A stretch of DNA of 64,000 bases from Accumulibacter sp. (GTDB taxonomy: Bacteria; Pseudomonadota; Gammaproteobacteria; Burkholderiales; Rhodocyclaceae). A program made the translations under genes and the position numbers. Position 1 is the stretch's first letter, and the number at the start of each line of letters is the position of its first letter. Below are positions 1 to 57,206 of this stretch, in pieces. The notes below the pieces were generated by a model that searched no databases, was not told where the DNA came from, and saw only the letters and a list, made by a program, of their open reading frames with translations. The DNA lies in assembly GCA_031266435.1 (NCBI GenBank), contig JAISAZ010000103.1:16119-80118 (forward strand). The letters are read 5' to 3'.

Positions 1-25
1 ATCGGTTTTCATCTGATTCCTGTTT
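1..25 (-). repeat. Edge of a mosaic repeat cluster (AGGAATCAGATGAAAACCGAT module), continues beyond window start
   Basis: Reverse complement of 1-21 contains GGAATCAGATGAAAACCGAT, identical to 11223-11242 and nearly identical to the modules near 5471-5489 and 56288-56308. Confidence 0.8.
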
Positions 26-328
26 CTCCGGCAACGGCGACAAGATCGGCGCGGGGGTGACGGTATCCCCGTTTTCGAGGCGGTAAATCCACGCGAGCAG
101 TTCGGCGACGGCGAGGTAAAGCTGCGGCGGAATGCGCTGGTCGAGGTCGACCTGCAAGAGCAGGGAGACGAGTTCGGGCGATTCGTGGACATAGACGCCG
201 TGTTCGTGCGCGCGCGCGATGATCTGCTCCGCGACGACGCCACGCCCTTTGGCGACGACGCGGGGCGCGGCGTCGGTCTGCGAGTAGGTCAGCGCGACGG
301 CGCTTTTCTGCGAATCGCGCACGCTCAT
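2..328 (-). CDS. FlhB C-terminal-like (EscU/YscU/HrcU family) export switch protein; 3' end runs off the window
   Basis: Not in the ORF track; translated by hand from ATG at 328 (ATGA overlap with the upstream stop): MSVRDSQKSAVALTYSQTDAAPRVVAKGRGVVAEQIIARAHEHGVYVHESPELVSLLLQVDLDQRIPPQLYLAVAELLAWIYRLE. The VAL-Y..APRVVAKG..IP..LY.AVAE.LAW pattern is typical of the family. Confidence 0.85.
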   Translation of the reverse strand, partial: MSVRDSQKSAVALTYSQTDAAPRVVAKGRGVVAEQIIARAHEHGVYVHESPELVSLLLQVDLDQRIPPQLYLAVAELLAWIYRLENGDTVTPAPILSPLPEKQESDENR

Positions 329-1524
329 TCCTTTTCCATTTCAGCGTCGATGTCGATCGACGCGATGGCAAGCCCCGCCTCGCCCATCTGGCTTTGGAGC
401 GCGCCGCGCGCCGCGCGCATCTTGTCCCGCGTACCTGGTTTCGCCGCGTGCATCGAGAGCGAGACGTTCGACCCGCGAACGAGTATCCCGATGTCGATTT
501 CGCCGAGTTCGGGCAAATTCATCCGAAGGCGCGTCGACCAGCGCGCGGCGCCGTCGTCTTCGGCGCCGGCGGCGGCGTGGCGCTCCTCGTCGTCGTCGAT
601 CTCCCAGCGCATCGTCTGCCCGGGCCAGATGATTCCCTGCCACGCGAATTTCTGCGACGCGAGCGCTTCGAGCTGCTGCTGGACCAAGGTATGGAGAGAC
701 TGCGCGACGATCTGCTCGGGCGCGCGATCGCTCGTCGCGCGCGCGCCGGCGCGAGCTTCGTCCGGAGCGTCCTGACGCGCGGGCGCGAGTTTGGCCGCCT
801 CTTCCGAAGCGTCGGGTCGTGAAGATTGTGAAGCCTGCGCCGTCTGCGCCGCTTGTGTCGTTTGCGCCGTCTGAGCCGTCTGCGAGGCTTGAGCCGGCGT
901 CGTCGTCTGCTCCGCTTGCGCCGTCTGCGGGTCGGCGAACGCGGTAGGGGAGGAGAGCTTCCCCTGCGGTTCGCGCAGGAGCGCGGCCTGCGTAAAGCGT
1001 CCCTCGACCCATTCGGCTTGGTGCGACTCGTAAAACATCCCGCTCTGAACGATCGCCTGCTTCAAGAGGGGGATCAATTCCTGGCGACCGAGCGCGGGCG
1101 AAGGCGTCAGGGGGCGGTTTTCGTTGAGTGCCGGCGGCGCGGGGGCTTCGCCGCCCTCGCGTCCTCCGCCGCCCAAAAGTCGGGCGATGAGCTGCCCCGT
1201 GCGGCTCAGGTTCGCGGCCGCCGATTCGGCGCCCTTGGCCGCCTGCTCCGCGACGGCGAACGCGACCTTGCCGTTCGTCTCGGTGACGAACATTTCGAGC
1301 ACGTCGCCGCTTTTTGCGGAAAAAGGGAGCGCGAGCGTGACGTTCCGCTGGTTGATCAGCGCGCGGTAGGTTCCGTTGGGAAGGAAGGCCTGAATCTCGG
1401 CCATCACCTTCTGGCCCGGAACGAGGTCGGAGAGCTTGTCCGAAATCTCGACCGGCTGCGCGACCGGGCGGAGCGTCGGCTCGGCCGAAACTTGCAAACG
1501 GCTGACGACGTCGGGCGGGATCAT
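325..1524 (-). CDS. fliK: Flagellar hook-length control protein FliK-like
   Basis: C-terminal WQGIIWPGQTMRWEI...WSTRLRMNLPELGEI hook-length-control domain, low-complexity AQT-rich linker, adjacent to FlhB-like and fliT genes. Confidence 0.75.
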   Translation of the reverse strand: MIPPDVVSRLQVSAEPTLRPVAQPVEISDKLSDLVPGQKVMAEIQAFLPNGTYRALINQRNVTLALPFSAKSGDVLEMFVTETNGKVAFAVAEQAAKGAESAAANLSRTGQLIARLLGGGGREGGEAPAPPALNENRPLTPSPALGRQELIPLLKQAIVQSGMFYESHQAEWVEGRFTQAALLREPQGKLSSPTAFADPQTAQAEQTTTPAQASQTAQTAQTTQAAQTAQASQSSRPDASEEAAKLAPARQDAPDEARAGARATSDRAPEQIVAQSLHTLVQQQLEALASQKFAWQGIIWPGQTMRWEIDDDEERHAAAGAEDDGAARWSTRLRMNLPELGEIDIGILVRGSNVSLSMHAAKPGTRDKMRAARGALQSQMGEAGLAIASIDIDAEMEKE

Positions 1525-1610
1525 CGCCAGAGACGCTCAAGCAAGACTTTCTTCCCGCCGGGGAAGAAAGCGGATTCCTGGAAAAATCGATTCATCGTGC
1601 GCATTTTTTT

Positions 1611-1713
1611 ATTCCTTTTCCAGTTCGTTCATGCCGAGAAGACGAGCCGTAGACAGTACAGGTAGTACGGCAAGGCGAAGTCGACAAAGGAAGGGACGAT
1701 CTGGAAATGGAAT
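1611..1713. repeat. ~100-bp MITE/REP-like element with imperfect terminal inverted repeats (copy 1)
   Basis: Left ATTCCTTTTCCAGTTCGTTC and right GACGATCTGGAAATGGAAT are imperfect inverted repeats; the core CATGCCGAGAAGACGAGCCG.AGACAGTACA....AGTACGGCAAGGCGA recurs at 54127-54226. Confidence 0.85.
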
Positions 1714-1789
1714 CAAACGCTTTTCGGTCAAATCATGAACGAAAAACCCCCTCGCCTCCAAGCGCCGTGAACGAGGGCTGGGAAACGCG

Positions 1790-2113
1790 CTAACTTGGTA
1801 AAGCCTCCCGCCTCACAGCGACCGGGTGGCGTTCGAAGGAACTCAGCAGAGGGCGCACCTGATCCATCCACGTACTCGCCTGGTCGGAGATGAATTTCTG
1901 CCGGTCGAGAAGCGTTTCGATCAACTCGTGCGCCTCGGCGCGCTCGTCACCGACGAGAAGGTCGACGAGCGAAAGCCTCTTCAGGTCGGAAAAACGCGCC
2001 TCGGCCATCTGCCAGATCGTCCCGACGCCCTGCCAGTCGAAAACGTCGATCCGCTCGACCATCTCATCGTGGCACTGCTTGAGTTCCCTGAGCAAAAAGA
2101 GCGCTTGAGACAT
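1790..2113 (-). CDS. fliT: Flagellar protein FliT-like (start reassigned to ATG 2113)
   Basis: 107-aa helical protein MSQALFLLRELKQ...WQ...QVRPLL directly downstream of fliS; the longer ORF-track start overlaps fliS. Confidence 0.7.
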   Translation of the reverse strand: MSQALFLLRELKQCHDEMVERIDVFDWQGVGTIWQMAEARFSDLKRLSLVDLLVGDERAEAHELIETLLDRQKFISDQASTWMDQVRPLLSSFERHPVAVRREALPS

Positions 2114-2141
2114 GGCGGTCAAATTCGCGCGGCTCGATCGC

Positions 2142-2555
2142 CTAGGCCTTCGCCGGCTGCCCACCTTCGTCCCCGATGCTGGCCCAAGCGCCCTGTATGT
2201 CGGTGAGCAAGCCGAGAACCTCGTTGAGCGCGCCCCTGTCGTTGTGCATATTTGCGTGCAAGAGGCGACCGGCCATGTAATCGTAGAGCGCGTAGAGGTT
2301 CTGCGCGATCTCGCCGCCTTCTTCGAGGTTGAGCGACGCGCGCAGACCATTCAGGATGATGTCGATCGCCTTCGTGATCGACATCCCCTTTTTCGGAATG
2401 TCGCCTTCCTCCATCCCGGCGCGCGCGATGACGATCGCCTCGTGCGCGCCTTCGAAGAGCAGGAGGATCAGCTTGTGAGGGCTGGCGTTCTGAATCGACG
2501 TTTCGATGCTCACGCTACTGTAGGCCTGCGCGGGATTGGTCGTGGTTCCGAACAT
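2142..2555 (-). CDS. fliS: Flagellin export chaperone FliS
   Basis: AY..V..ET....ASPHKLILLLFEGA and GGEIAQNLYALYDYM motifs; follows fliD. Confidence 0.95.
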   Translation of the reverse strand: MFGTTTNPAQAYSSVSIETSIQNASPHKLILLLFEGAHEAIVIARAGMEEGDIPKKGMSITKAIDIILNGLRASLNLEEGGEIAQNLYALYDYMAGRLLHANMHNDRGALNEVLGLLTDIQGAWASIGDEGGQPAKA

Positions 2556-5420: not shown

Positions 5421-5830
5421 GTACAGGTTGGTGGTGAGCGCATCATCAGGGATCAGATGTCAGGTATCAGGGATCAGATGAAAACCGATTTCAACCGCGA
5501 AAGGCGCGAAAGTCTTTGTAGGGGCACGGCACGCCGTGCCCTATCGGCGGTATAGGTTGGGGTGAGCGAAGCGATGCCCAACGTTCCGTGTTCGCATGAA
5601 TGATGGAGAGGGCAGGGGAATTCTCCATGTAGGGGCGAACCTATGTGTTCGCCCAATATCCGGGCAGACACGCAGGTCTGCCCCTACGTGGCAATCGACG
5701 ACGCGCGGACGGTTGACGCCGCTTTTGCGGGAATGATGCCGATCCTGAAATGGCTTGCGCTTCGCGCAAGCGAGATGTTGGGCATCGCTCCGCTCACCCC
5801 AACCTATACCAACCCATACCCACCCCAACG
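5421..5830. repeat. Mosaic repeat cluster C1
   Basis: Heptamer array (ATCAGGG/ATCAGAT); nonamer arm AACCGCGAAAGGCGCGAAAG 5493-5512; REP-B GTAGGGGCACGGCACGCCGTGCCC 5518-5541; REP-A 5551-5582 (+) and 5777-5808 (-); inverted REP-C pair 5629-5654 / 5662-5687; hairpin GCTTGCGCTTCGCGCAAGC. Confidence 0.9.
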
Positions 5831-8557: not shown

Positions 8558-10989
8558 TGGGCATCGACGGTGTCGACCCTTTGCGCCGCGATAAAATCTC
8601 GCGTGCGCAGGCGCTGTTCGGCGAAGGCCTCGCGCGTTCGCGCGCAGGGCGTTTTGCCGAGGCGCGGGAATACTACGAACGCGGCTTGAAACTCTTCCCC
8701 GGTCAGCCCGACGCGGTCTTCCTGCTTGGGGAAACGCATTTCGAACTCGGGAACGCCGCCGAAGGCGAGCGCCTCGTCCGGCGCGCGATCGCCGCAAACC
8801 CGCGCGCCGACAACTACCGCCGCGCGTTTGCGACGCGGCTGTTCAAGGCCGGACGGCTCGACGAAGCGCGGGCGTTTTTTGAAGATGCCGCCCGCCTGAA
8901 CCCCTCCGAGCCGGCGAATCTCTCCGGGCTGGCAAGCGTTCTCGAAGGTGTTGGTCGCTTTGCCGACGCGATTGCCGTATGGCTTCGACTGCTCGAACGC
9001 GCGCCGGCCTCATTGGAAGCGCTCGCCCGCCTTTCGCGCCTGTTCGTCGCGGAGAATCGCGTCCCCGAAGCTTTTGCCATGATTGAGCGCTGGATGAATG
9101 TCGCATCGAACGCTTCGGATGCTTCAGCCTACGCCTTGCGCGCCGAGCTTTACGAGAGCGTTGGGAACGCCACCGCCGCGCTGGCCGATTACGCCGACGC
9201 CGCCGCGCGCGCGCCGGATGACGCGAGCACCCACGCGAAGTACGCGCTGGCGCTCGCAAAGGCCGGAGACGACGACGCGGCGCTCGCGCATTTCGACGCA
9301 TCGGTTCGCCTCGAACCCCGTAACGCGCTTTTGCACTTCAACCGGGGCGTCGCGTACGCGCGCGCTGGCGTCCGCGACCAAGCCGTGTCGGCTTACGAGA
9401 CGGCGCTCGGACTTCTCACACTCTCGACGGATTTGCCACTGGCGTCGAATACCATGCTCAATTTGGCGAATCTCTATTCCGACCTCGATCGTTGTGACGA
9501 AGCGCGGGCGCTTTATACGCGAATCCTCGCGGCTGAACCCAAAAACGCTGCGGCGCTTTTCAACCTCGGTATGCTGGATCTCGCCGCTGGGCACAAGAAG
9601 GACGCCGTCAAGACGCTCGAACGCGCGCTCGCCGCCGACCCCGACGGCGAATCGGCTGGTTTGGTCGCGGCGCATCTCCTCTTCCAGAAAATGCATCTCT
9701 GCGAATGGGACGGACTGGAGGATTTGACCCGCCGCGTGATTCACGCGGTCGAGAACGATACGGCCGACGTTCCGCCTTTCATCACGCTGTCGATCCCCGG
9801 AACGACGCCGTGTCTCCAGCGGCGATGCGCCGCGAACCACAGTGCCCGACTGAAAAAGCCTGGAATGAGCGTGTTTAGTGAAACGAGGCGCTGTGCCGCG
9901 CCGCGCGAACGCCTGCGCGTCGGCTATCTTTCGTCCTACTTCAAAGCACACGCGATGCCGTGGCTCACAGTCGAAACGCTCGAAGCGCACGACCGCGCGC
10001 GCTTTGAAATCTTCGCGCTTTCTTATGGTGTCGATGACGCTAGTCCGATGCGCACGCGCGTTGTGAACGCCGTCGAGCACTTCGTCGAACTCGCGGGCTT
10101 GCCCGACCGCGACGCCGTCGCGCGCATCGCCGCGCTTGAACTCGACGCGATCGTCGACTGGAATGGTTATACCGAAGGGAATTGCAGCCGCTGGTTGCAA
10201 TATCGCCTCGCGCCGCGCCAGATCAGTTGGATCGGTTATCCCGGAACGCTCGACGCGCCGTGGGTCGAGTTTTTGATCGCCGACGTGCACGTCGCGCCGC
10301 CGGAAAACGACTCGTTGTTCAGCGAGCGCGTCGTTCGCCTGCCGGGTTGCTATTTGCCGAACTGCCGCGCGCGCGAATGCGCGCCCGTACCGACGCGCGC
10401 GGAAGAGGGCTTGCCCGAAGGCGCGCTCGTTCTCTGCTCGTTCAACCAGACGGTCAAGATTACGCCGGAGATGTTTGCGCTTTGGATCGGCCTCCTCGGT
10501 GAATTCCCCGAAACGGTTCTTTGGCTCTGGGCGTCGAACCGCTGGGCAGAGGCTTCGCTTCGCCGAGTCGCCGAAGCCGCGGGACTCGTGCCCTCACGCG
10601 TCGTTTTTGCCGAAAGCCGACCGCAGGCCGAACACCTCGCGCGCTTGCCGCTCGCCGACCTCGCGCTCGACACCTTCCCGTGCAACGGGCATACGACAAG
10701 CTCCGACGCGCTCTGGGCCGGCGTCCCCGTCGTGACGCTCGAAGGCGAGGCTTTCGCCTCGCGCGTCGCGGGTAGCCTGCTACACGCCGCCGGATTGCCC
10801 GAACTCGTCGCGCCCGACACGGCGGCGTATCGCGCGATCGTCCGGCGCTTTTGCCGCGATCAAGGCTTCAGGGACGGCGTCTCGAACAAGGCGCGCGCGC
10901 TGCGCGAGACTTCCGACCTCTTCGATAGCGCGAAGTTCGCGCGCAAGCTCGAAGCGTGCTTCGAGGAGATTTGCTTGGGGGAGGGGTGA
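8557..10989 (+). CDS. TPR O-linked GlcNAc transferase-like protein (GT41/SPINDLY family)
   Basis: TPRs, then RLRVGYLSS.F..H and DLALDTFPCNGHTTSSDALWAGVPVVTLEGEAFASRVAGSLL; TGATG overlap with the upstream gene. Confidence 0.9.
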   Translation: MGIDGVDPLRRDKISRAQALFGEGLARSRAGRFAEAREYYERGLKLFPGQPDAVFLLGETHFELGNAAEGERLVRRAIAANPRADNYRRAFATRLFKAGRLDEARAFFEDAARLNPSEPANLSGLASVLEGVGRFADAIAVWLRLLERAPASLEALARLSRLFVAENRVPEAFAMIERWMNVASNASDASAYALRAELYESVGNATAALADYADAAARAPDDASTHAKYALALAKAGDDDAALAHFDASVRLEPRNALLHFNRGVAYARAGVRDQAVSAYETALGLLTLSTDLPLASNTMLNLANLYSDLDRCDEARALYTRILAAEPKNAAALFNLGMLDLAAGHKKDAVKTLERALAADPDGESAGLVAAHLLFQKMHLCEWDGLEDLTRRVIHAVENDTADVPPFITLSIPGTTPCLQRRCAANHSARLKKPGMSVFSETRRCAAPRERLRVGYLSSYFKAHAMPWLTVETLEAHDRARFEIFALSYGVDDASPMRTRVVNAVEHFVELAGLPDRDAVARIAALELDAIVDWNGYTEGNCSRWLQYRLAPRQISWIGYPGTLDAPWVEFLIADVHVAPPENDSLFSERVVRLPGCYLPNCRARECAPVPTRAEEGLPEGALVLCSFNQTVKITPEMFALWIGLLGEFPETVLWLWASNRWAEASLRRVAEAAGLVPSRVVFAESRPQAEHLARLPLADLALDTFPCNGHTTSSDALWAGVPVVTLEGEAFASRVAGSLLHAAGLPELVAPDTAAYRAIVRRFCRDQGFRDGVSNKARALRETSDLFDSAKFARKLEACFEEICLGEG

Positions 10990-11535
10990 TTCAGGAGACA
11001 GGAGACAGAGGACAGAAGACAGAGGACAGAAGACAGATCAGTTAGCGGCGGCTTCGCCACCGGAGAAGAGCTTTTTCAACCCGCCTCGGAAACGTTGGGC
11101 ATCGCTTCGCTCACCCCAACCTATGGCATCTCCGCTCCGTTCTCGGCGGTATAGGTTGGGCTGCGGCGAAGCAAAGCCCAACGTTCCGTATGCGCATATC
11201 ATGTATCAGATGTCAGGAATCTGGAATCAGATGAAAACCGATCGGTGTATCAAAGATTCTTCTCCGGCCGAAGGCCGCAAGAATTCTCTGTCTCCCGACC
11301 TCTGTCTCCTGTCTCCTGAACCAACCCGCCTCGCGATCGTTGGGCTTCGCTCCGTTCTCGGCGGTATAGGTTGGTGGTGAGCGAAGCGAACCCCAACGAT
11401 TCCGTATGCGTATATCAGGGATCAGGAATCAGAGGACAGGAATCAGATCAGTCAGCGGCGGCTTCGCCACCGGTAAGCGCTTTTTCACGCCGCCCCGGAA
11501 ATGTTGGGCATCGCTGCGCTCTGCCCAACCTATGC
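10990..11535. repeat. Mosaic repeat cluster C2
   Basis: Heptamer arrays (GACAGAG/GACAGAA) start right after the stop codon; module F CAGATCAGTYAGCGGCGGCTTCGCCACCGG at 11034 and 11444; REP-A at 11094(-), 11150(+), 11365(+), 11503(-); GGCCGAAGGCC at 11266; inverted heptamers 11286-11319. Confidence 0.9.
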
Positions 11536-11618
11536 GAGTTATGGGGGCGGACTGGCGGGTTATAGGGGCTTGAAGAGAAGAAATATCTGTGTTAAAAACC
11601 GAAGGAAAGGAGAGCGAA

Positions 11619-11822
11619 ATGGCTGACGAAAGTACGACCGTTGAAAACGAAAGACTCATTCACATCCGACGAATCGACGCGGAAATATCGAAGATATTTA
11701 CCGAAATCGAAGAAATGCGCGCCGAAACGATGAAAATCCAAACAGAATCAAAATGGCATCCTTTTGTCGTAGTTGCCGGAATCTTCGGCGCCGCCATCGC
11801 CATCGTTAAACTTTTTGTCTGA
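11619..11822 (+). CDS. Small hypothetical protein (67 aa), coiled coil plus C-terminal membrane anchor
   Basis: GGAG RBS then ATG 11619; heptad-like RIDAEISKIFTEIEEMRAETMKIQTE followed by hydrophobic WHPFVVVAGIFGAAIAIVKLFV. Confidence 0.7.
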   Translation: MADESTTVENERLIHIRRIDAEISKIFTEIEEMRAETMKIQTESKWHPFVVVAGIFGAAIAIVKLFV

Positions 11823-12005
11823 TTCCTTTTCCAGTTCGCCACGGTCGACTTCGTCTTGCCGTAAAGATGTGGGGGACGTGGCGAACCCCAAACCGTACGC
11901 TTTTTCATGCCGCCCCGCGATTGTTGGGGTTCGCTCCGTTCTTGGCGGTATAGGTTGGGCTGCGGCGAAGCAAAGCCCAACGTTCCGCATACGCATGAAT
12001 GATGG
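11822..12005. repeat. Mosaic repeat cluster C2b (truncated inverted MITE arm + REP-A)
   Basis: 11822-11863 ATTCCTTTTCCAGTTCGCCACGGTCGACTTCGTCTTGCCGTA matches one arm of the 1611/54127 element in opposite orientation; half REP-A at 11923, full REP-A at 11949-11981. Confidence 0.85.
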
Positions 12006-34039: not shown

Positions 34040-34918
34040 TTAGAGCGGGGCGGGAACGCCGAGCGCGCGGGCGAGGATTTCCGGTGCGTTGCGCTTTGAG
34101 AAAATTTCGAGGCCCTGCCGCGCGAGTTTTGCGCGTGCGTCGTTGTCCGCGACGAGTTCGGCGCAGGCATCAACGAGCGCGTCGTAGGGGACGGCGCGGA
34201 CCGCTTGGCGTATATCGGGTTCGATCGCCGTCGCGGCGCCGCATTCAGCGACGACGGGTTTTTCGTTGGCGAGGAGGTAGGAGACGCGAACGATTTCGAA
34301 AACCTGCGCGTCGTAATAGTGCATGTTGAGGACGACTTTGGCGCGTGCGATCATGCGGTCGCGCTCTTCGCGGTAGACGCCGACGAGGAATTCGATGCGG
34401 AGACCTTTTTTGATCAGTCCTTCGAGGATGACCCGGCGGCGTTCGTTGATCGCGCCGTAGAAAAGGACGTCGATGTCTTGCGCGACGTCGGCGGGGATGC
34501 GCGTGAGTTGCGGGACGTAGCCGATCGGGACGAATTTCGCGCCTTCGACGCCGATGTTTTTCATGCGTCGGATGTTTTCTTCGCTGTAATCCCAAACGAC
34601 GCATTTTTTGAGCAGGTCGAGGTAGGCGGGGGTGATCCACGTGGAATTTTCGTCGGGATTTTCACTGATCTGTTCGGAGTTGTAGAGGATCGTGTCGGCG
34701 GGGATCGCGCGCATCGTTTGCGCGTCGAGGAGGTGGGCACCGAGGACGATGTTCGTGCAGTCGGGCTCGATTTTGTTCATGTTGAACTGGAAGGGGAGGC
34801 GTAGCGCATCGAGCGCAACGATCAGCGTTTCGGCGAGTTCGGCCATCGCGGCGCTGTGCGCGTAGTTTTCCGGCTGGAGCAGCGTGAGGTTGGTGGGGCG
34901 CGTGGTGGGTTCGGGCAT
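34040..34918 (-). CDS. Putative glycosyltransferase (GT-B fold)
   Basis: VWDYS..N, DIDVLFYGAINERR, AKVVLNMHYY..FEIVRVSYLLAN motifs seen in glycan-locus proteins. Confidence 0.6.
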   Translation of the reverse strand: MPEPTTRPTNLTLLQPENYAHSAAMAELAETLIVALDALRLPFQFNMNKIEPDCTNIVLGAHLLDAQTMRAIPADTILYNSEQISENPDENSTWITPAYLDLLKKCVVWDYSEENIRRMKNIGVEGAKFVPIGYVPQLTRIPADVAQDIDVLFYGAINERRRVILEGLIKKGLRIEFLVGVYREERDRMIARAKVVLNMHYYDAQVFEIVRVSYLLANEKPVVAECGAATAIEPDIRQAVRAVPYDALVDACAELVADNDARAKLARQGLEIFSKRNAPEILARALGVPAPL

Positions 34919-34925
34919 GTTTTCT

Positions 34926-35150
34926 TTCAGAGGACAGATGTCAGGGATCAGAGGACAGAGGACAGAGGACAGAAGATAGAGGACAGAATTGTGGTCTGTG
35001 TTCAGTATTCAGATGTCGCATGGCTTGCCTCCTTCAGATTATAGACAACTGATTACAGAGGCCGAAGGCCGCTCTGTCGTCTGTCCTTTCCATCATTCCA
35101 GCGTTTGCGGAACGTTGGGGTTCGCTGCGCTCACCACCAACCTATGCATA
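34926..35150. repeat. Mosaic repeat cluster C4 (heptamer array, 83-bp core, inverted heptamers, REP-A)
   Basis: (CAGAGGA)n 34928-34987, core 34989-35071 homologous to inverted 55293-55374, CTCTGTC 35072-35087, REP-A(-) 35114-35145. Confidence 0.88.
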
Positions 35151-48534: not shown

Positions 48535-49931
48535 AACACAAGGTCAAAAACATCCATTTCGTCGGAATCGGCGGATCGGGAATGAGCGGGATCGCCGAAG
48601 TTCTGAACAACCTGGGCTACCGCGTCAGCGGTTCCGACCTCGCCGAGAGCGCGGTGACGCGCAGGCTCGCCGGACTCGGAATCCGAACGGTGACGGGGCA
48701 CGCGGAACAAAACGTCGAAGGCGCCGACGCCGTCGTCGTCTCGACCGCGATCCGGGGCGACAATCCCGAAGTCTCCGCCGCGCGCGCGCGCGGAACCCCT
48801 GTCGTGCCGCGCGCGCAGATGCTCGCGGAGCTGATGCGCTTCAAGAAGGGGATCGCCGTCGCCGGAACGCACGGCAAGACGACGACGACGAGCCTCGTCG
48901 CGTCGATTCTCGCCGAGGCCGGGATGGACCCGACCTTCGTGATCGGCGGCGTCCTCAACGCCGCGTGCGCCAACGCGCGGCTCGGCACCGGCGATTACCT
49001 TGTCGCCGAAGCCGACGAATCCGACGTTTCATTTCTGGTGCTCTCTCCCGTCGTTTCGATCGTGACGAATATCGACGCCGACCACATGGAGAGCTACGGA
49101 CACGACTTCGATCGCCTGAAGCAAGCCTTCGTCGACTTTCTGCTGCGCCTTCCATTCTACGGCGTCGCCGTGCTGTGCTCGGACGACGCGCGCGTGCGCG
49201 AGATCATCCCGCAAGTACCCAAGCAGATCATCCGCTACGCGATCGACGACGGCTCAGCCGCCGTACGCGCCGAAAACATGAGTGCGCGCGGCGGAAAGAT
49301 GTTCTTCGACTGCGTCCGTACCAACGGAGTGATCACTCGCTTTCCCGTCACGCTCAACCTGCCGGGGGTGCACAATGTATTGAATGCGCTCGCGGCAATC
49401 GCCGTGGCGACCGAACTCAACGTCCCGGATTCGGCGATCGTCCGCGCGCTCGCCGAGTTCAAGGGCGTCGGCAGGCGCTTTCAGCGTTACGGCGAAATCG
49501 CGCTGCCGGACGGCGGCCGCTTCACGCTGATCGACGACTACGGGCACCACCCCGCCGAAATGCGCGCGACGATCGCCGCGGCGCGCGGCGCCTTCCCGGA
49601 AAAGCGGCTCGTCCTCGCCTTCCAGCCGCACCGCTACACGCGGACGCGCGACTGCTTCGAGGATTTCATTTCGGTACTGGGGAACGTCGACTCCTTGATC
49701 CTGACCGAGGTCTACCCGGCGGGCGAGGCGCCGATCGTCGCCGCCGACGCGCGTTCGCTCGCGCGCGCGCTCCGCGTTGCCGGACGCGTCGAGCCGCTTT
49801 TCGTCGAAAACGTCGCCGACATGCCGCAGGCGATCCTCGGCGCGGCGAGCGACGGCGACGTTGTCATAACGATGGGCGCGGGTTCGATCGGAAGCGTTCC
49901 GGGGCGGCTCGCGGTGGGAGAAAAGCGATGA
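48531..49931 (+). CDS. murC: UDP-MurNAc-L-Ala ligase MurC
   Basis: [46 protein letters not shown]. Confidence 0.97.
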
Positions 49932-54037: not shown

Positions 54038-54126
54038 CGCGCAGTTACGCCGAAGGATAAACCGACCCGGCGCGATTGCGCGGGGTTTCGGAGGGTATTC
54101 GCACGTTCGGCGCGGAAGGCGGCGTG

Positions 54127-54226
54127 ATTCCTTTCCAGTTCATTCATGCCGAGAAGACGAGCCGCAGACAGTACAAACAGTACGGCAAGGCGAGTCGACA
54201 ATGGAATGGATGAACTGGAAATGGAA
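54127..54226. repeat. ~100-bp MITE/REP-like element (copy 2)
   Basis: Same core and terminal inverted repeats as 1611-1713; between ftsZ and lpxC. Confidence 0.85.
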
Positions 54227-54309
54227 GGAGAAGCGATTGCGGAAAGGGAAGATTGTTAAAACCTCTGCCATGTTACAATCTTCCTCTTTCAGTATTCTCC
54301 GATCGCAGT

Positions 54310-55251
54310 ATGTTGAAGCAGCGCACATTGAAGTCTTCCGTCCGCGCCTCCGGCGTCGGTCTGCATTCCGGAGCGAGGGTCACGATGCTCCTGCGTCCGG
54401 CCCCGCCGGATACCGGAATTGTTTTTCGGCGCATCGACGCGAACCCCGCCGTCGACCTTCCCGCGGACGCGATGAAGGTCGGCGATACGCGCCTGTGTTC
54501 GTGCCTTGAAGTCGATTCTCCCCAGGGGAAGTTCCGCGTCGGAACGATAGAGCATTTGATGTCGGCTTTTTCCGGCATGGGGGTCGACAACGCCTACGTC
54601 GACCTCGACGCGGCGGAACTGCCGATCCTCGACGGTTCGGCTTCGCCCTTCGTCTTCCTGATCCAGTCGGTGGGCGTCGAAGAACAGCCGGTTCCCCGAA
54701 AGTTCATCCGCGTCAAGCGGAGCGTTTCGGTCCGCGAGTGCGACGATTCGGGCGAAAAATGGGCGCGCCTCGACCCCTTCGACGGCTTCAAACTCACATT
54801 TTCGATCGTTTTCAACCACCCGGCAATCGACCGCACGGGACAAGAGCTTACGATCGACTTCGGCGAGCACTCCTACGCCCGTGAAATCGCGCGCGCGCGG
54901 ACTTTCGGCTTCATGCAGGAAGTCGAATGGCTGCACGAAAACGGGCTGGCGCAGGGCGGCGGCCTCGAAAACGCCGTCGTCCTCGACGAATTCCACGTCC
55001 TGAACGGAGACGGTCTGCGTTACGGCGACGAATTCGTGAAGCACAAGGCGCTCGACGCGATCGGCGACCTTTATCTGCTCGGCCACCCCCTGCTCGCGGC
55101 CTTTTCGGCGCACAAATCGGGTCACGCCTTGAACAACCTGCTCGCGCGCGAACTTCTCGCGCAGCCCGACGCCTGGGAATACGCGAGCTTCGAAGACGCC
55201 GCGTCGATCCCCGGCGGTGTCGCGCGCTGGCAAACGCAGCTGGCGTTCTGA
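54310..55251 (+). CDS. lpxC: UDP-3-O-acyl-GlcNAc deacetylase LpxC
   Basis: [46 protein letters not shown]. Confidence 0.97.
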
Positions 55252-55518
55252 TCAGGGATCAGAGGACAGAGGACAGAGGACAGAGGACAGAACGGTCTTC
55301 GACCTTTGTAGTCAGTTGCCTGTAATCAGAAGGAGCGTCCCATCCGACATCTGACGACTGAAAACTGGCCACAAAGCGAGCGCTCAGTCTTCTATCTTCT
55401 GTCTTCTGTCTTCAGTCCTCTGATCCCCGTCCTCTGATCCCTGTCTCCTGATACCTGAAATGGCTTGCGCTTCGCGCAAGCGAGGTGTTGGGCATCGCTG
55501 CGCTCACCCCAACCTATA
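55250..55518. repeat. Mosaic repeat cluster C5
   Basis: Heptamer array directly after the lpxC stop, 82-bp core 55293-55374, inverted heptamers 55385-55460, 64-bp hairpin + REP-A block 55454-55517. Confidence 0.9.
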
Positions 55519-55980
55519 CCTGATTTGATGGCGCAATTGCTTTGTCGTGAGCCTTCGCCCTGCCGAATCATCGGCATAATACATAAGCGCCTCGTCCGAT
55601 TTCAAAGGCAACAGTTCGATGAAGTGCGACCAACTCAATTGTTGCGCCAGCGGCGCAACAATCTCGATATCGGGAAATCTTCTGGAAAACTGTATCATGC
55701 GCCGGATATTCGTATAATCGAAAGAGCTTCCATATCGTCTTTTCAATTGCTGTGCCAAAGACGCAACAATCCTTTTTCCGTATTCCGCGCGTTCACCGTC
55801 GAGCAAAAATGCCTCGACAAACCGCCCGATTTCCCAATACATCAGCGTAATTTCGCGATTCGCGCAGGCTCCGGCGCGGGATTTGCGATTTTCGATAATC
55901 GTCGAAACACGCTCAAATAGAGCAGCCTCCTCTGCCGATGTTGTTTCTCTCGAAACAAGCCGGCCCTTTTCCTTATTCAT
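55504..55980 (-). pseudogene. DUF1016/YhcG-family protein, N-terminal domain only, truncated by a REP-A repeat
   Basis: MYWEIG..RAEYGK.IV..LA..L...YG.SF...N.RRM.QF..LSWSHFIELL motifs; the frame enters REP-A at ...HQIR|YRLG* and stops inside it; no C-terminal PD-(D/E)xK domain follows. Confidence 0.85.
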
Positions 55981-56109
55981 TCGTTTCCTTGTTTTTCTTG
56001 TCTGGGATCGTTTCCGTCGTACCCGAAATACCTCACACAAGCGACACACCGCGCTTGAAGTGCAAACCCTGGCTTTATCAAGGGAGGAATGGGGATATCA
56101 TACACTCAC

Positions 56110-56760
56110 ATCAGGAGACGGGAGACAGGAGACAGGAGACAGATGAAAACCGATCGGGAAGAACCGGTATGGGGGAGTGGGTTCTTGTAGGGGCACGGCA
56201 TGCCGTGCCCATCGGCGGTATGGCTTGGGCTGAACGGGTGTGAAGCCCAACGATTTCGCATACGTATGAATGACGGAACAAGATGGCAGGAATCAGATAA
56301 AAACCGATTTCAACCGCGAAAGGCGCGAAAGACGCGAAAGTGAAGTGTTTGCATAAATTTTCGCGCTTTTCGCGTGTTTCGTGGTTCTTGTTTCCTGATC
56401 GGGCACGGCACGCCGTGCCCCTACGCGCGAATCGACGACGCGCGGATGCTTGACGCCTCTTTTGCGGGAATGATGCCGAATCCTGAAATGGCTTGCGCTT
56501 CGCGCAAGCGAGGTGTTGGGCATCGCTGCGCTCACCCCAACCTATGCTTGGTGGGGTTTCGTCACTCCGGCGGCGAAGCCGCCGCTGACCGATCTGATTC
56601 CTGTCTCCTGATTCCTGATACCTGAAATGGCTTGCGCTTCGCGCAAGCGAGATGTTGGGCATCGCTCCGCTCACCCCAACCTATGCGTAGAGGGTGGGGT
56701 TTCGTCACTTCGGCGGCGAAGCCGCCGCTACCTTCTCTGTCTCCTGATCCCTGATCCCTG
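56110..56760. repeat. Mosaic repeat cluster C6 (largest)
   Basis: Heptamers, REP-B(+) 56187-56210, degenerate REP-A 56219-56251, inverted nonamer element 56312-56386, REP-B(-) 56401-56424, block 56430-56545 shared with 5693-5807, module F(-) 56567-56596, second hairpin + REP-A block 56621-56684, inverted heptamers to 56760. Confidence 0.9.
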
Positions 56761-57206
56761 GCGTGCGAGACGAGTTTGCCCAAGGCTGCGCGCAGCGCGG
56801 ATTCCGGCAGGGACTTCTGGAGTTCTTCGATCTCTTTTAGCGTTTCGAGGCTCAAGGGTTCTCGCGCGGGGAGGGGTGAATCTTTTTTTGTTTCAATGGG
56901 TTGCACTTTAATTTGAATGTCGTTACACTGATAACCGCGCCGGGAGAAGCCGTCGACGAGAGTTGGCGCCATCTGGCGTAGTTTGGACGCGGCGGCGTGG
57001 CTCGACGTGTGCAGGATGAGCTTTTCCGACTTGTAGTTGACCAGTTGGCTGATCAGTCCGAGTTGGGCGGGGACGATTTCCTGGTAGATGCGCGACAAGA
57101 GGGCGAGGCGCTTTGCGTGCGCGATTATTTTCCCGGCGTCGCTGATTTCCAGGAAACTCGACAGGGAGTCGGGTTTTGCGGGTGTTTTAAAGGGGAGAGT
57201 GTGCAT
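56562..57206 (-). CDS. DUF721/DciA-family protein with repeat-derived C-terminal extension
   Basis: L..IY.EIVP.QL..SQLVNYKSEKLILHTSSHAAASKLRQMAPTL..IQIKVQP; expected position between lpxC and M23/secA; the last ~65 aa are encoded by cluster C6. Confidence 0.75.
   Translation of the reverse strand: MHTLPFKTPAKPDSLSSFLEISDAGKIIAHAKRLALLSRIYQEIVPAQLGLISQLVNYKSEKLILHTSSHAAASKLRQMAPTLVDGFSRRGYQCNDIQIKVQPIETKKDSPLPAREPLSLETLKEIEELQKSLPESALRAALGKLVSHARDQGSGDREGSGGFAAEVTKPHPLRIGWGERSDAQHLACAKRKPFQVSGIRRQESDRSAAASPPE

Follow-up and report, generated by a model that had tools for sequence, protein, structure and literature searches.

The heptamer-bounded repeat described here (copy A) is best read, with confidence slightly above even, as one member of a lineage-specific family of ~100 copies of 150-210 bp non-coding palindromic repeats, and as an ORF-less extragenic relative of the selfish stem-loops of the intervening sequence (IVS) type. 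It lies in a window of 64,000 nucleotides from an Accumulibacter sp. contig, the source of which is a termite-gut metagenome; the LpxC protein encoded in the window is ~80% identical to those of its nearest named relatives (Propionivibrio, Accumulibacter). The evidence that carries this reading is a dispersed family, the pairing of its arms, the abutment of stop codons, a change in unit number and the presence of differing interiors at one site.

The same order of parts is found in all copies of the family: a purine-strand array of heptamers, the motif TTTGTGA, an imperfect inner hairpin, a GGCC-GAA-GGCC mini-hairpin and an inverted array (Table 1). An earlier note, made from the letters of the window, had described two such heptamer-bounded copies, one of them inverted, and both are confirmed. 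TRF detects period-7 arrays at 34928-34987, 55260-55291 and 55387-55457. Runs of three or more CAG.... units number 11 in the window, as compared to 0.7 in shuffles, and CAGAGGACAGAGGA has 14 matches with up to two mismatches, where 0.23 are expected. Self-blastn aligns 55277-55427 with 35087-34944, inverted, with 78.3% identity over 152 nt (E 1.6e-18). The core identity of roughly 80% and the frame-breaking indel that had been proposed also hold, MAFFT yielding 81% column identity and a single 1-nt indel in the core. Some details of that description were amended. Copy B, given as 55250-55460, ends at 55457, and copy A, the architecture of which is otherwise as described, has a right arm of only 16 nt (~2.3 units) and lacks the 20-26 nt segment GAGCGCTCGCT(GAC)GCTCGCT that stands between the left array and TTTGTG in the other copies.

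The nine units of the copy A 5' arm read CAGAGGA, CAGATGT, CAGGGAT, three times CAGAGGA, CAGAAGA, TAGAGGA and CAGAATT, and 9 nt separate the outer end of this arm from a start codon at 34918, which belongs to a minus-strand gene. In the copy A core, the inner hairpin carries the invariant CTCCTTC-GATTA at its apex. Arm length and unit composition vary freely between both ends and among copies; CAGAGCG, the innermost unit, is the sole one to be mirrored consistently between the arms.

Table 1. Coordinates of the heptamer-bounded units and neighbouring modules (window positions, except for the two inserts of locus L121)
Feature	Position	Strand	Description
Copy A	34928-35087	+	whole element
Copy A 5' arm	34928-34990	+	purine-strand heptamer array, 9 units (CAGRRRN)
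Copy A core	34989-35071 with mini-hairpin; 34989-35059 without	+	begins TTGTGG
Copy A inner imperfect hairpin	arms 35001-35017 and 35044-35059	+	within core
Copy A mini-hairpin	35060-35070	+	GGCC-GAA-GGCC, just ahead of 3' arm
Copy A 3' arm	35072-35087	+	inverted array CTCTGTC GTCTGTC CT
Copy B	55250-55457	-	whole element, inverted relative to copy A
Copy B 3' arm (element orientation)	55250-55294	-	plus strand reads TGA-TCAGGGAT(CAGAGGA)x4
Copy B mini-hairpin	55294-55304	-	GGTC-TTC-GACC on plus strand
Copy B mini-hairpin and core	55294-55381	-	
Copy B 5' arm	55381-55457	-	~11 mixed-type heptamer units
Second-type heptamer-bounded unit	11198-11319	+	array, CAGATGAAAACCGATCGG, short interior, GGCC-GAA-GGCC, inverted array
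Parts of second-type unit	11266-11276; 11286-11318	+	GGCC-GAA-GGCC; inverted array
Half-design	10992-11065	+	array, then hairpin GGCGGC-TTC-GCCACC
Left end of second unit type	56112-56157	+	array and CAGATGAAAACCGATCGG
Half-design	56565-56625	+	hairpin GGCGGC-GAA-GCCGCC, GCTGACCGATCTG, inverted array
Second 56565-type half-design	56704-56760		array runs into dciA 3' end
REP-like ATAGGTTGGGGTGAGCGAAGCGATGCCCAAC units	5549-5585, 5777-5810, 11091-11197, 11348-11425, 11501-11533		
REP-like ATAGGTTGGGGTGAGCGAAGCGATGCCCAAC units, continued	11932-11996, 35113-35145, 55487-55520, 56515-56545, 56654-56684		
L121 insert 1	635-1060		PF05635 ORF
L121 insert 2	1710-1872		without ORF

The repeat is a dispersed family and not a local duplication. 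A search with the core pattern retrieved four further copies at unrelated loci of the Accumulibacter MAG Gx485_bin129 (termite gut), and one orthologue of copy A is located in a sister MAG contig (L040); together with copies A and B, these are the seven sequences compared below. In the Logan contigs of the source sample (run X1), the summed k-mer depth of the core reaches 1678, as compared to 12.8 for single-copy flanks, and copy B displays a similar excess over its own flanks. These depths suggest ~100 copy-equivalents for the family, to which other strains in the sample may contribute. The 31-mers of the core are found in runs of the source study only. The exact core pattern has no match in the JGI metagenomes, blastn with the core gave none in phage, plasmid and E. 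coli collections, and an nhmmer profile of the seven copies detected no extra copies in the window and related loci; two matches to the core pattern in CPR bacteria are coding-sequence coincidences. Rfam searches of the window, of the MAG loci and of 20 metagenome loci returned only tRNA and rRNA, whether a gathering or an E-value threshold was applied. The copies in Gx485_bin129 and L040 and the k-mer depth support what the earlier note had proposed, a non-coding, multi-copy, dispersed unit with inverted heptamer arrays of variable length. That note had also considered that the two copies might derive from one local duplication, or that the core might belong to a known Rfam or IS-end family. 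The unrelated loci of Gx485_bin129 and the sister copy contradict the former, and no match to such a family was found in these searches.

The copies are intergenic, A and B each having protein-coding genes on both sides. In the four Gx485_bin129 copies, the purine array starts 0-3 nt past a same-strand stop codon or overruns it. The genes whose stop codon is abutted by an arm are rlmE, vapC (PIN-domain), a UbiA-family gene, a gene of locus L004, and lpxC; in loci L003 and L004, two convergent stop codons are separated by the element and nothing else. The 3' arm of copy B begins within the lpxC stop codon (55249-55251), while the length of LpxC stays native. Beyond the 5' arm of copy B stand a REP-like unit and then a probably truncated DUF1016_N gene. 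Copy A is the exception to this arrangement: its neighbours are a GGDEF gene on one side and the start of a second gene on the other, and it is antisense to both genes.

The sister MAG contig is 94.5-95.5% identical to the window over 11 kb. It holds copy A at the same place, with a core ~93% identical and a different number of heptamer units, which fits slippage. At lpxC, window and sister are homologous up to 5 nt past the stop codon, a point that falls within the first heptamer unit. From there on, the sister presents (CAGGAGA)n-CAGATGAAAACCGAT...ATCGGTTTTCATCTG-(inverted heptamers), a unit unlike copy B. MAG assemblies can be mis-joined at repeats, a caveat for any comparison of repeat sites; the two versions of the lpxC site recur on different Logan contigs from runs X1 and X2. 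The polymorphism at lpxC consists of a different unit at the same site, and not of a clean empty site; in a more distant relative, lpxC is not followed by arrays, and the spacer cannot be aligned. To note, the minus-strand gene that starts beside copy A (34040-34918) encodes 292 residues and has its stop codon at 34040-34045, where the sister has a 3-nt difference; the sister orthologue is 504 residues long and possesses a methyltransferase domain.

The whole element folds better than its shuffles, with z values of -5.5 and -6.7 for the two strands. The outer helix assembled by the arms reaches 24-37 bp in copy B and in loci L001, L003 and L004, and ~15-16 bp only in copy A, its right arm being short. 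Among the seven sequences, 2 of 42 pairs covary. The mini-hairpin does exhibit a compensatory change, from GGCC/GGCC to GGTC/GACC in copy B, and in L006 it contains one G-T wobble.

IVSs are typically inserted in helix 9, 25 or 45 of the 23S rRNA, and their S23p or four-helix-bundle ORF is optional. Those carrying an S23p ORF (Coxiella burnetii, Leptospira; PF05635, TIGR02436) are regarded as selfish and horizontally moved. Locus L121 harbors a metagenomic bacterial LSU rRNA gene (1-2456, minus strand, 1511 bits) with two inserts, both bounded by inverted CAGARGA arrays and having stems of 29-33 bp. The ORF of the first insert, the ATG of which is directly 3' of the array, encodes a PF05635 protein (23S_rRNA_IVP, a four-helix bundle; E 1.7e-34). 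The helix-45 IVS of Coxiella has been described as a selfish element whose terminal stem measures 28 bp (Warrier et al., PMC4990558). Ahead of its S23p start codon, the 5' part of this IVS is formed by AGAAGA, (GACAGAT)2-3 and GACAGAA; the repeat number differs among strains, and experiments have shown RNase III cleavage where the first repeat begins (PMC4990558). GACAGAT and GACAGAA are the units of the window read in another phase. This confirms a statement of the earlier note, that heptamer arrays flank four-helix-bundle (TIGR02436-type) genes in other genomes. It applies to L121 and to the Coxiella IVS, and not to the window ORFs tested (a subset of the small ORFs), among which no PF05635/TIGR02436-type gene was found, as the same note had stated for the window.

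The focal element therefore compares with IVSs as follows. Its terminal inverted repeats pair, as do those of IVSs, in which the stem measures ~28-33 bp, against 24-37 bp for the focal outer helix and ~15 bp in copy A. Its heptamers belong to the same CAGAWGA unit family as those of Coxiella, the number of which likewise varies among strains, and both the ORF-carrying and the ORF-less forms in L121 have CAGARGA arms. Conversely, the focal element is located between protein-coding genes and not in rRNA (Rfam identifies no rRNA in the window), carries no ORF, has its own family-specific core and occurs in many copies per genome. Its stem resembles that of an IVS; its location is not that of one.

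In the mechanism proposed, the element would be co-transcribed in the 3' UTR of its neighbour or in intercistronic RNA. By analogy with the Coxiella 23S IVS, the arm duplex may be cut by RNase III, or may block exonucleases or read-through. Spread would occur via a trans-acting enzyme, or through recombination or gene conversion between shared arrays, rather than via an element-encoded transposase; recombination or gene conversion would fit both the absent duplications and the mosaic ends. The abutment of stop codons may reflect slippage deletion that proceeds until selection on the coding sequence halts it. Several features of the data weigh against the IVS-like reading. The arm pairing of copy A is short for RNase III, and copy A is antisense to both neighbour genes. 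A pure stem function leaves the conserved core of 83-110 nt unexplained, the covariation among the seven sequences is thin, and the DNA examined provided no empty orthologous site, target-site duplication or enzyme.

The architecture is also found in a wider class of loci. A pattern of two purine units, 90-120 nt and two inverted units was searched in metagenomes of many environments, and at least 120 loci with inverted CAGARGA arrays around structured cores were identified. Among the matches listed, ~37 possess a common core of 55-65 nt, formed by two GC hairpins, the triloops of which are TNC and GNA. Both hairpins covary, with double changes in 8 of 16 pairs, and on each strand a T-rich tail follows the first hairpin (4.4 T per 10 nt, 2.1 being expected). 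Judged by its sequence, this two-hairpin core looks like back-to-back terminators; in the 20 metagenome loci of the class submitted to Rfam, no match to it was found. Arms in the class typically begin 0-10 nt past a stop codon, with a variable offset. Among the matches listed, an ORF of at least 80 residues terminates within 10 nt of an arm in 60 of 91 elements, and the abutment per side amounts to 35-38%, as compared to 6.2% at random positions. In many cases a degenerate first unit (CAGATGA, CAGATAA or TAGAGGA, for example) includes the stop codon. One Gallionellaceae-like locus holds a canonical element between murC and ddl, within the dcw operon. The sequence (CAGAGGA)3 is present in 21 viral contigs, often just 5' of start codons and sometimes in inverted pairs with a short centre; for CAGATGAAAACCGAT, all viral matches were either chance or coding ones.

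These positions are also those expected of a 3'-end signal selected by the host, in which the arrays would be tunable post-stop spacers and the core a terminator, an attenuator or a stabiliser. The strong stop-codon abutment across the class and the covarying hairpins with T-rich tails of the commonest metagenome core, both among the matches listed, speak for such a role, together with the exact filling of the convergent-stop gaps in L003 and L004 and with the heptamer arrays of Xanthomonas, which are transcribed and conserved in position (PMC4692102). For the focal family this role is nevertheless doubtful. Its core lacks a hairpin-plus-T-tract on either strand, and promoter and terminator scans at copies A and B found nothing. 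Near-identical cores sit at unrelated genes, which argues for copying and not for independent selection. Furthermore, a strong terminator between murC and ddl would harm the dcw operon, and copy A precedes a gene start, in antisense orientation.

A classical MITE, that is, a deletion derivative of a DNA transposon whose arrays would be bound by a transposase made elsewhere and which would move by cut-and-paste, is an equally improbable identity. The MITE-like character proposed in the earlier note stands as far as the element is small, non-coding, multi-copy, dispersed and inverted at its ends; the mirrored innermost CAGAGCG units and the different units held at one site by sister strains also agree with it. 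The window moreover contains, between ftsZ and lpxC, an insert of ~118 nt (54113-54229) with clear terminal inverted repeats, TTCCTTTCCAGTTCATTCAT at one end and the inverse at the other. The insert has a second copy at 1617-1712 (89.6% identity), is absent in the sister (L039 9905-9921) and looks like a genuine MITE with presence/absence polymorphism, from which MITE-type mobility would operate in this genome. For the focal element, no target-site duplication of at least 4 nt was found within 3 nt of the ends in any of the seven copies, the arms differ freely in length and unit make-up between ends and copies, and no transposase partner was seen in the window or in ~50 kb of related DNA, including loci near copies. 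The stop-codon offset, which ranges from 0 to 10 nt across the class (among the matches listed), argues against a fixed target. Classical MITE status of the focal element is unproven.

The term emptied cassette, also used in the earlier note, would mean that arrays and end modules are the boundaries of a small gene and that the core is the remnant left after cargo loss. It is a fair description insofar as arrays flank a PF05635 ORF in both L121 and the Coxiella IVS. Indeed, L121 combines the ORF-bearing insert, with its ATG right after the array, and an ORF-less one, and the S23p ORF of Coxiella is decaying (PMC4990558). Locus L003 has a vapBC pair between an 11198-type unit and a focal-family copy, a DUF1016_N fragment is located between copy B and the 56112 array, and the second unit type opens with an array followed by ATG AAA ACC GAT. 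Applied to the focal family, the cassette is unlikely, as no recognisable remnant of a cargo gene was found in or beside any focal-core copy. The coding potential of the core is, to judge from its sequence, not conserved: the plus-strand short ORF is broken in frame by the copy A indel and by a stop codon in L004, its peptide has no match among 5.8 billion proteins, and the short ORFs are devoid of ribosome-binding sites apart from a minus-strand ORF of copy A and L040. A Pfam analysis of 60 small ORFs beside arrays, among the matches listed, identified mostly housekeeping proteins and a single PF05635, that of L121, which is a locus of the wider class; no recombinase is known for such cassettes. 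Cargo-bearing long versions were sought among the matches listed, and the search led to arrays in frame in a DnaE2-like ORF and to no cassette. This ORF (L084 3125-6844, plus strand) is 1239 residues long, was recognised as DnaE2-like by eye, and contains CAGAAGA arrays in frame (EDRRQKTEDRR...), which indicates that heptamer units can persist in coding sequence as low-complexity linkers.

That the core encodes a small RNA or a small protein is largely excluded and very improbable, since, against a nearly invariant central segment of 40 nt, a good ribosome-binding site and ATG ahead of the minus-strand ORF in copy A and its orthologue, and an excess of G-U over A-C departures on one strand (14 to 4, a count biased by the folding method), there stand the absence of any promoter-like site or Rfam match, an ATG that reads ATC in the other five copies, the broken plus-strand frame and the lack of a protein match mentioned above. 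The minus-strand ORF itself (34941-35021) displays an invariant GAAGGAG in copy A and the L040 orthologue, with the ATG 7 nt on. It comprises 26-30 codons, runs through the array and stops 22 nt (window) or 11 nt (L040) before the next gene start. Gene 34040-34918 has no ribosome-binding site of its own, and the short ORF may have been co-opted as its leader ORF.

Beyond the IVS-like reading of the focal family, a broader and much more tentative proposal is that heptamer-armed stem-loops represent one widespread, unnamed selfish superfamily, with rRNA IVSs as its rRNA-resident members. Its members would colonise hairpin-tolerant transcribed sites, either just past stop codons or in expansion-tolerant rRNA helices. 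Their interiors may be carried, lost or swapped, from S23p/Avd-like four-helix-bundle genes to toxin-antitoxin pairs, terminator pairs and family-specific cores. They would spread without a conventional transposase, the arrays serving as substrates of recombination or slippage, or a four-helix-bundle protein as an accessory factor. CAGARGA arms bound both an S23p-carrying IVS and abundant ORF-less units past the stop codons of ordinary genes. Two decades-old questions, the origin and mobility of rRNA IVSs and the excess of heptamers in bacteria, are thereby tied together by this locus. The structured motif class is common, is missing from Rfam and breaks metagenome assemblies.

Other repeat systems share some of these features. 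The Correia elements of Neisseria, ERIC and RUP are small, non-coding, multi-copy elements with inverted ends that form hairpins when transcribed, and Correia elements are RNase III substrates altering the expression of neighbour genes. Such MITEs possess terminal inverted repeats of fixed sequence and target-site duplications (TA for Correia). The focal element is likewise small, non-coding, multi-copy and inverted-ended, but it is bounded by tandem arrays that vary, and shows no target-site duplication. REPs are single palindromes of 20-40 nt; they have a conserved head and are moved by RAYT transposases. The likeness to REP, BIME and REPIN resides in extragenic palindromes after genes and in mosaics of intermixed modules, whereas tandem-array arms and a core of ~100 nt set the focal element apart from REPs, and no RAYT was seen in the window and related loci. 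Integron cassettes are defined by an attC site with R''/L''-L'/R' boxes, by cassette arrays and by the IntI integrase. The attC/integron reading, as well as a retron/DGR one, was set aside by eye for want of any defining feature; no integrase was found among the ORFs scanned, and the focal units are dispersed singly after housekeeping genes.

In build and function, the inverted heptamer pairs of Xanthomonas rank with IVSs as the closest known relatives. They belong to the mostly intergenic (GGGAATC)n and (GGGGAYT)n repeats of Xanthomonas and Nostoc, with 70-75 convergent pairs per Xanthomonas genome (Rehm et al. 2015, PMC4692102). The lengths of the Xanthomonas arrays vary between relatives, and a role in G-quadruplex formation has been proposed for these heptamers (PMC4692102). 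The focal class exhibits all traits of the Xanthomonas type: tandem intergenic heptamers, convergent pairs, the purine strand just past the stop codon and variable length. It differs in that the Xanthomonas/Nostoc unit is a G-tract, quadruplex-forming one, and no conserved dispersed core between paired arrays has been described there. In Beggiatoaceae, Cyanobacteria and Bacteroidetes, TAACTGA repeats mostly form direct arrays immediately 5' of start codons (MacGregor 2015, PMC4679880); one inverted set was counted among 170, and a role in translation was proposed (PMC4679880). These repeats and the cyanobacterial STRR heptamers resemble the focal class as abundant intergenic tandem heptamers, patchy across phyla and close to gene boundaries, but the TAACTGA repeats have no dispersed core. 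The idea of a CsrA sponge, suggested by the GGA in every unit, was dropped because most arrays pair with their complement.

The third heptamer-bounded unit that the earlier note had reported, with a different interior, is real (11198-11319), its left end being an array plus CAGATGAAAACCGATCGG. Its likeness to the focal family is confined to the inverted array and the GGCC-GAA-GGCC hairpin, and its homologues are found in L003 (2382-2465) and L006 (2705-2817). Promoter and terminator scans of 10950-11620 found nothing. The array of the half-design at 10992-11065 begins 2 nt past the stop codon of a TPR gene (10987-10989), and this half-design is duplicated at 11416-11475. Elsewhere in the metagenome, the 56112-56157 type joins the 56565 half-design by merely 15-18 nt.

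The REP-like family ATAGGTTGGGGTGAGCGAAGCGATGCCCAAC occurs as single units or as inverted doublets (REPIN-like) and contains the mini-hairpin motif GCGAAGC. Its units adjoin copies A and B, are also present in the other heptamer-rich regions, and are in many cases connected with an array through the conserved linker CGTTCCGTATGCGCATGAATGA. Tandem-repeat arms characterise another kind of hairpin as well, at 56315-56381, where (CGCGAAAGR)n and (TTTCGCGYK)n, two tandem arrays of 9-mers in inverted orientation, surround a 19-nt centre; a direct 9-mer arm is also present after a CAGATGAAAACCGAT end, at 5476-5515. A GC-rich palindrome family, TGTAGGGGCACGGCACGCCGTGCCCCTAC, is located among other modules at 5516-5545, 56185-56215 and 56398-56425. 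A tRNA-Leu(GAG) called by ARAGORN in the dcw cluster (48910-48987, minus strand) is probably false, because Rfam detects no tRNA in the window at gathering score.

Between lpxC and dciA, the 181-residue ORF at 55504-56049 (minus strand) matches the DUF1016 N-terminal domain only (PF17761), and is probably a truncated nuclease-family gene within a module-rich insert of 1.5 kb. The adjacent dciA gene (56562-57206, minus strand) has a frame without stop codon ahead of the array at 56733-56760, and continues for ~70 extra codons through the array and a REP. Its product is thus 214 residues long in the window, as compared to 144 in a relative. The reading frame of rlmE in L001 likewise continues through a heptamer array.
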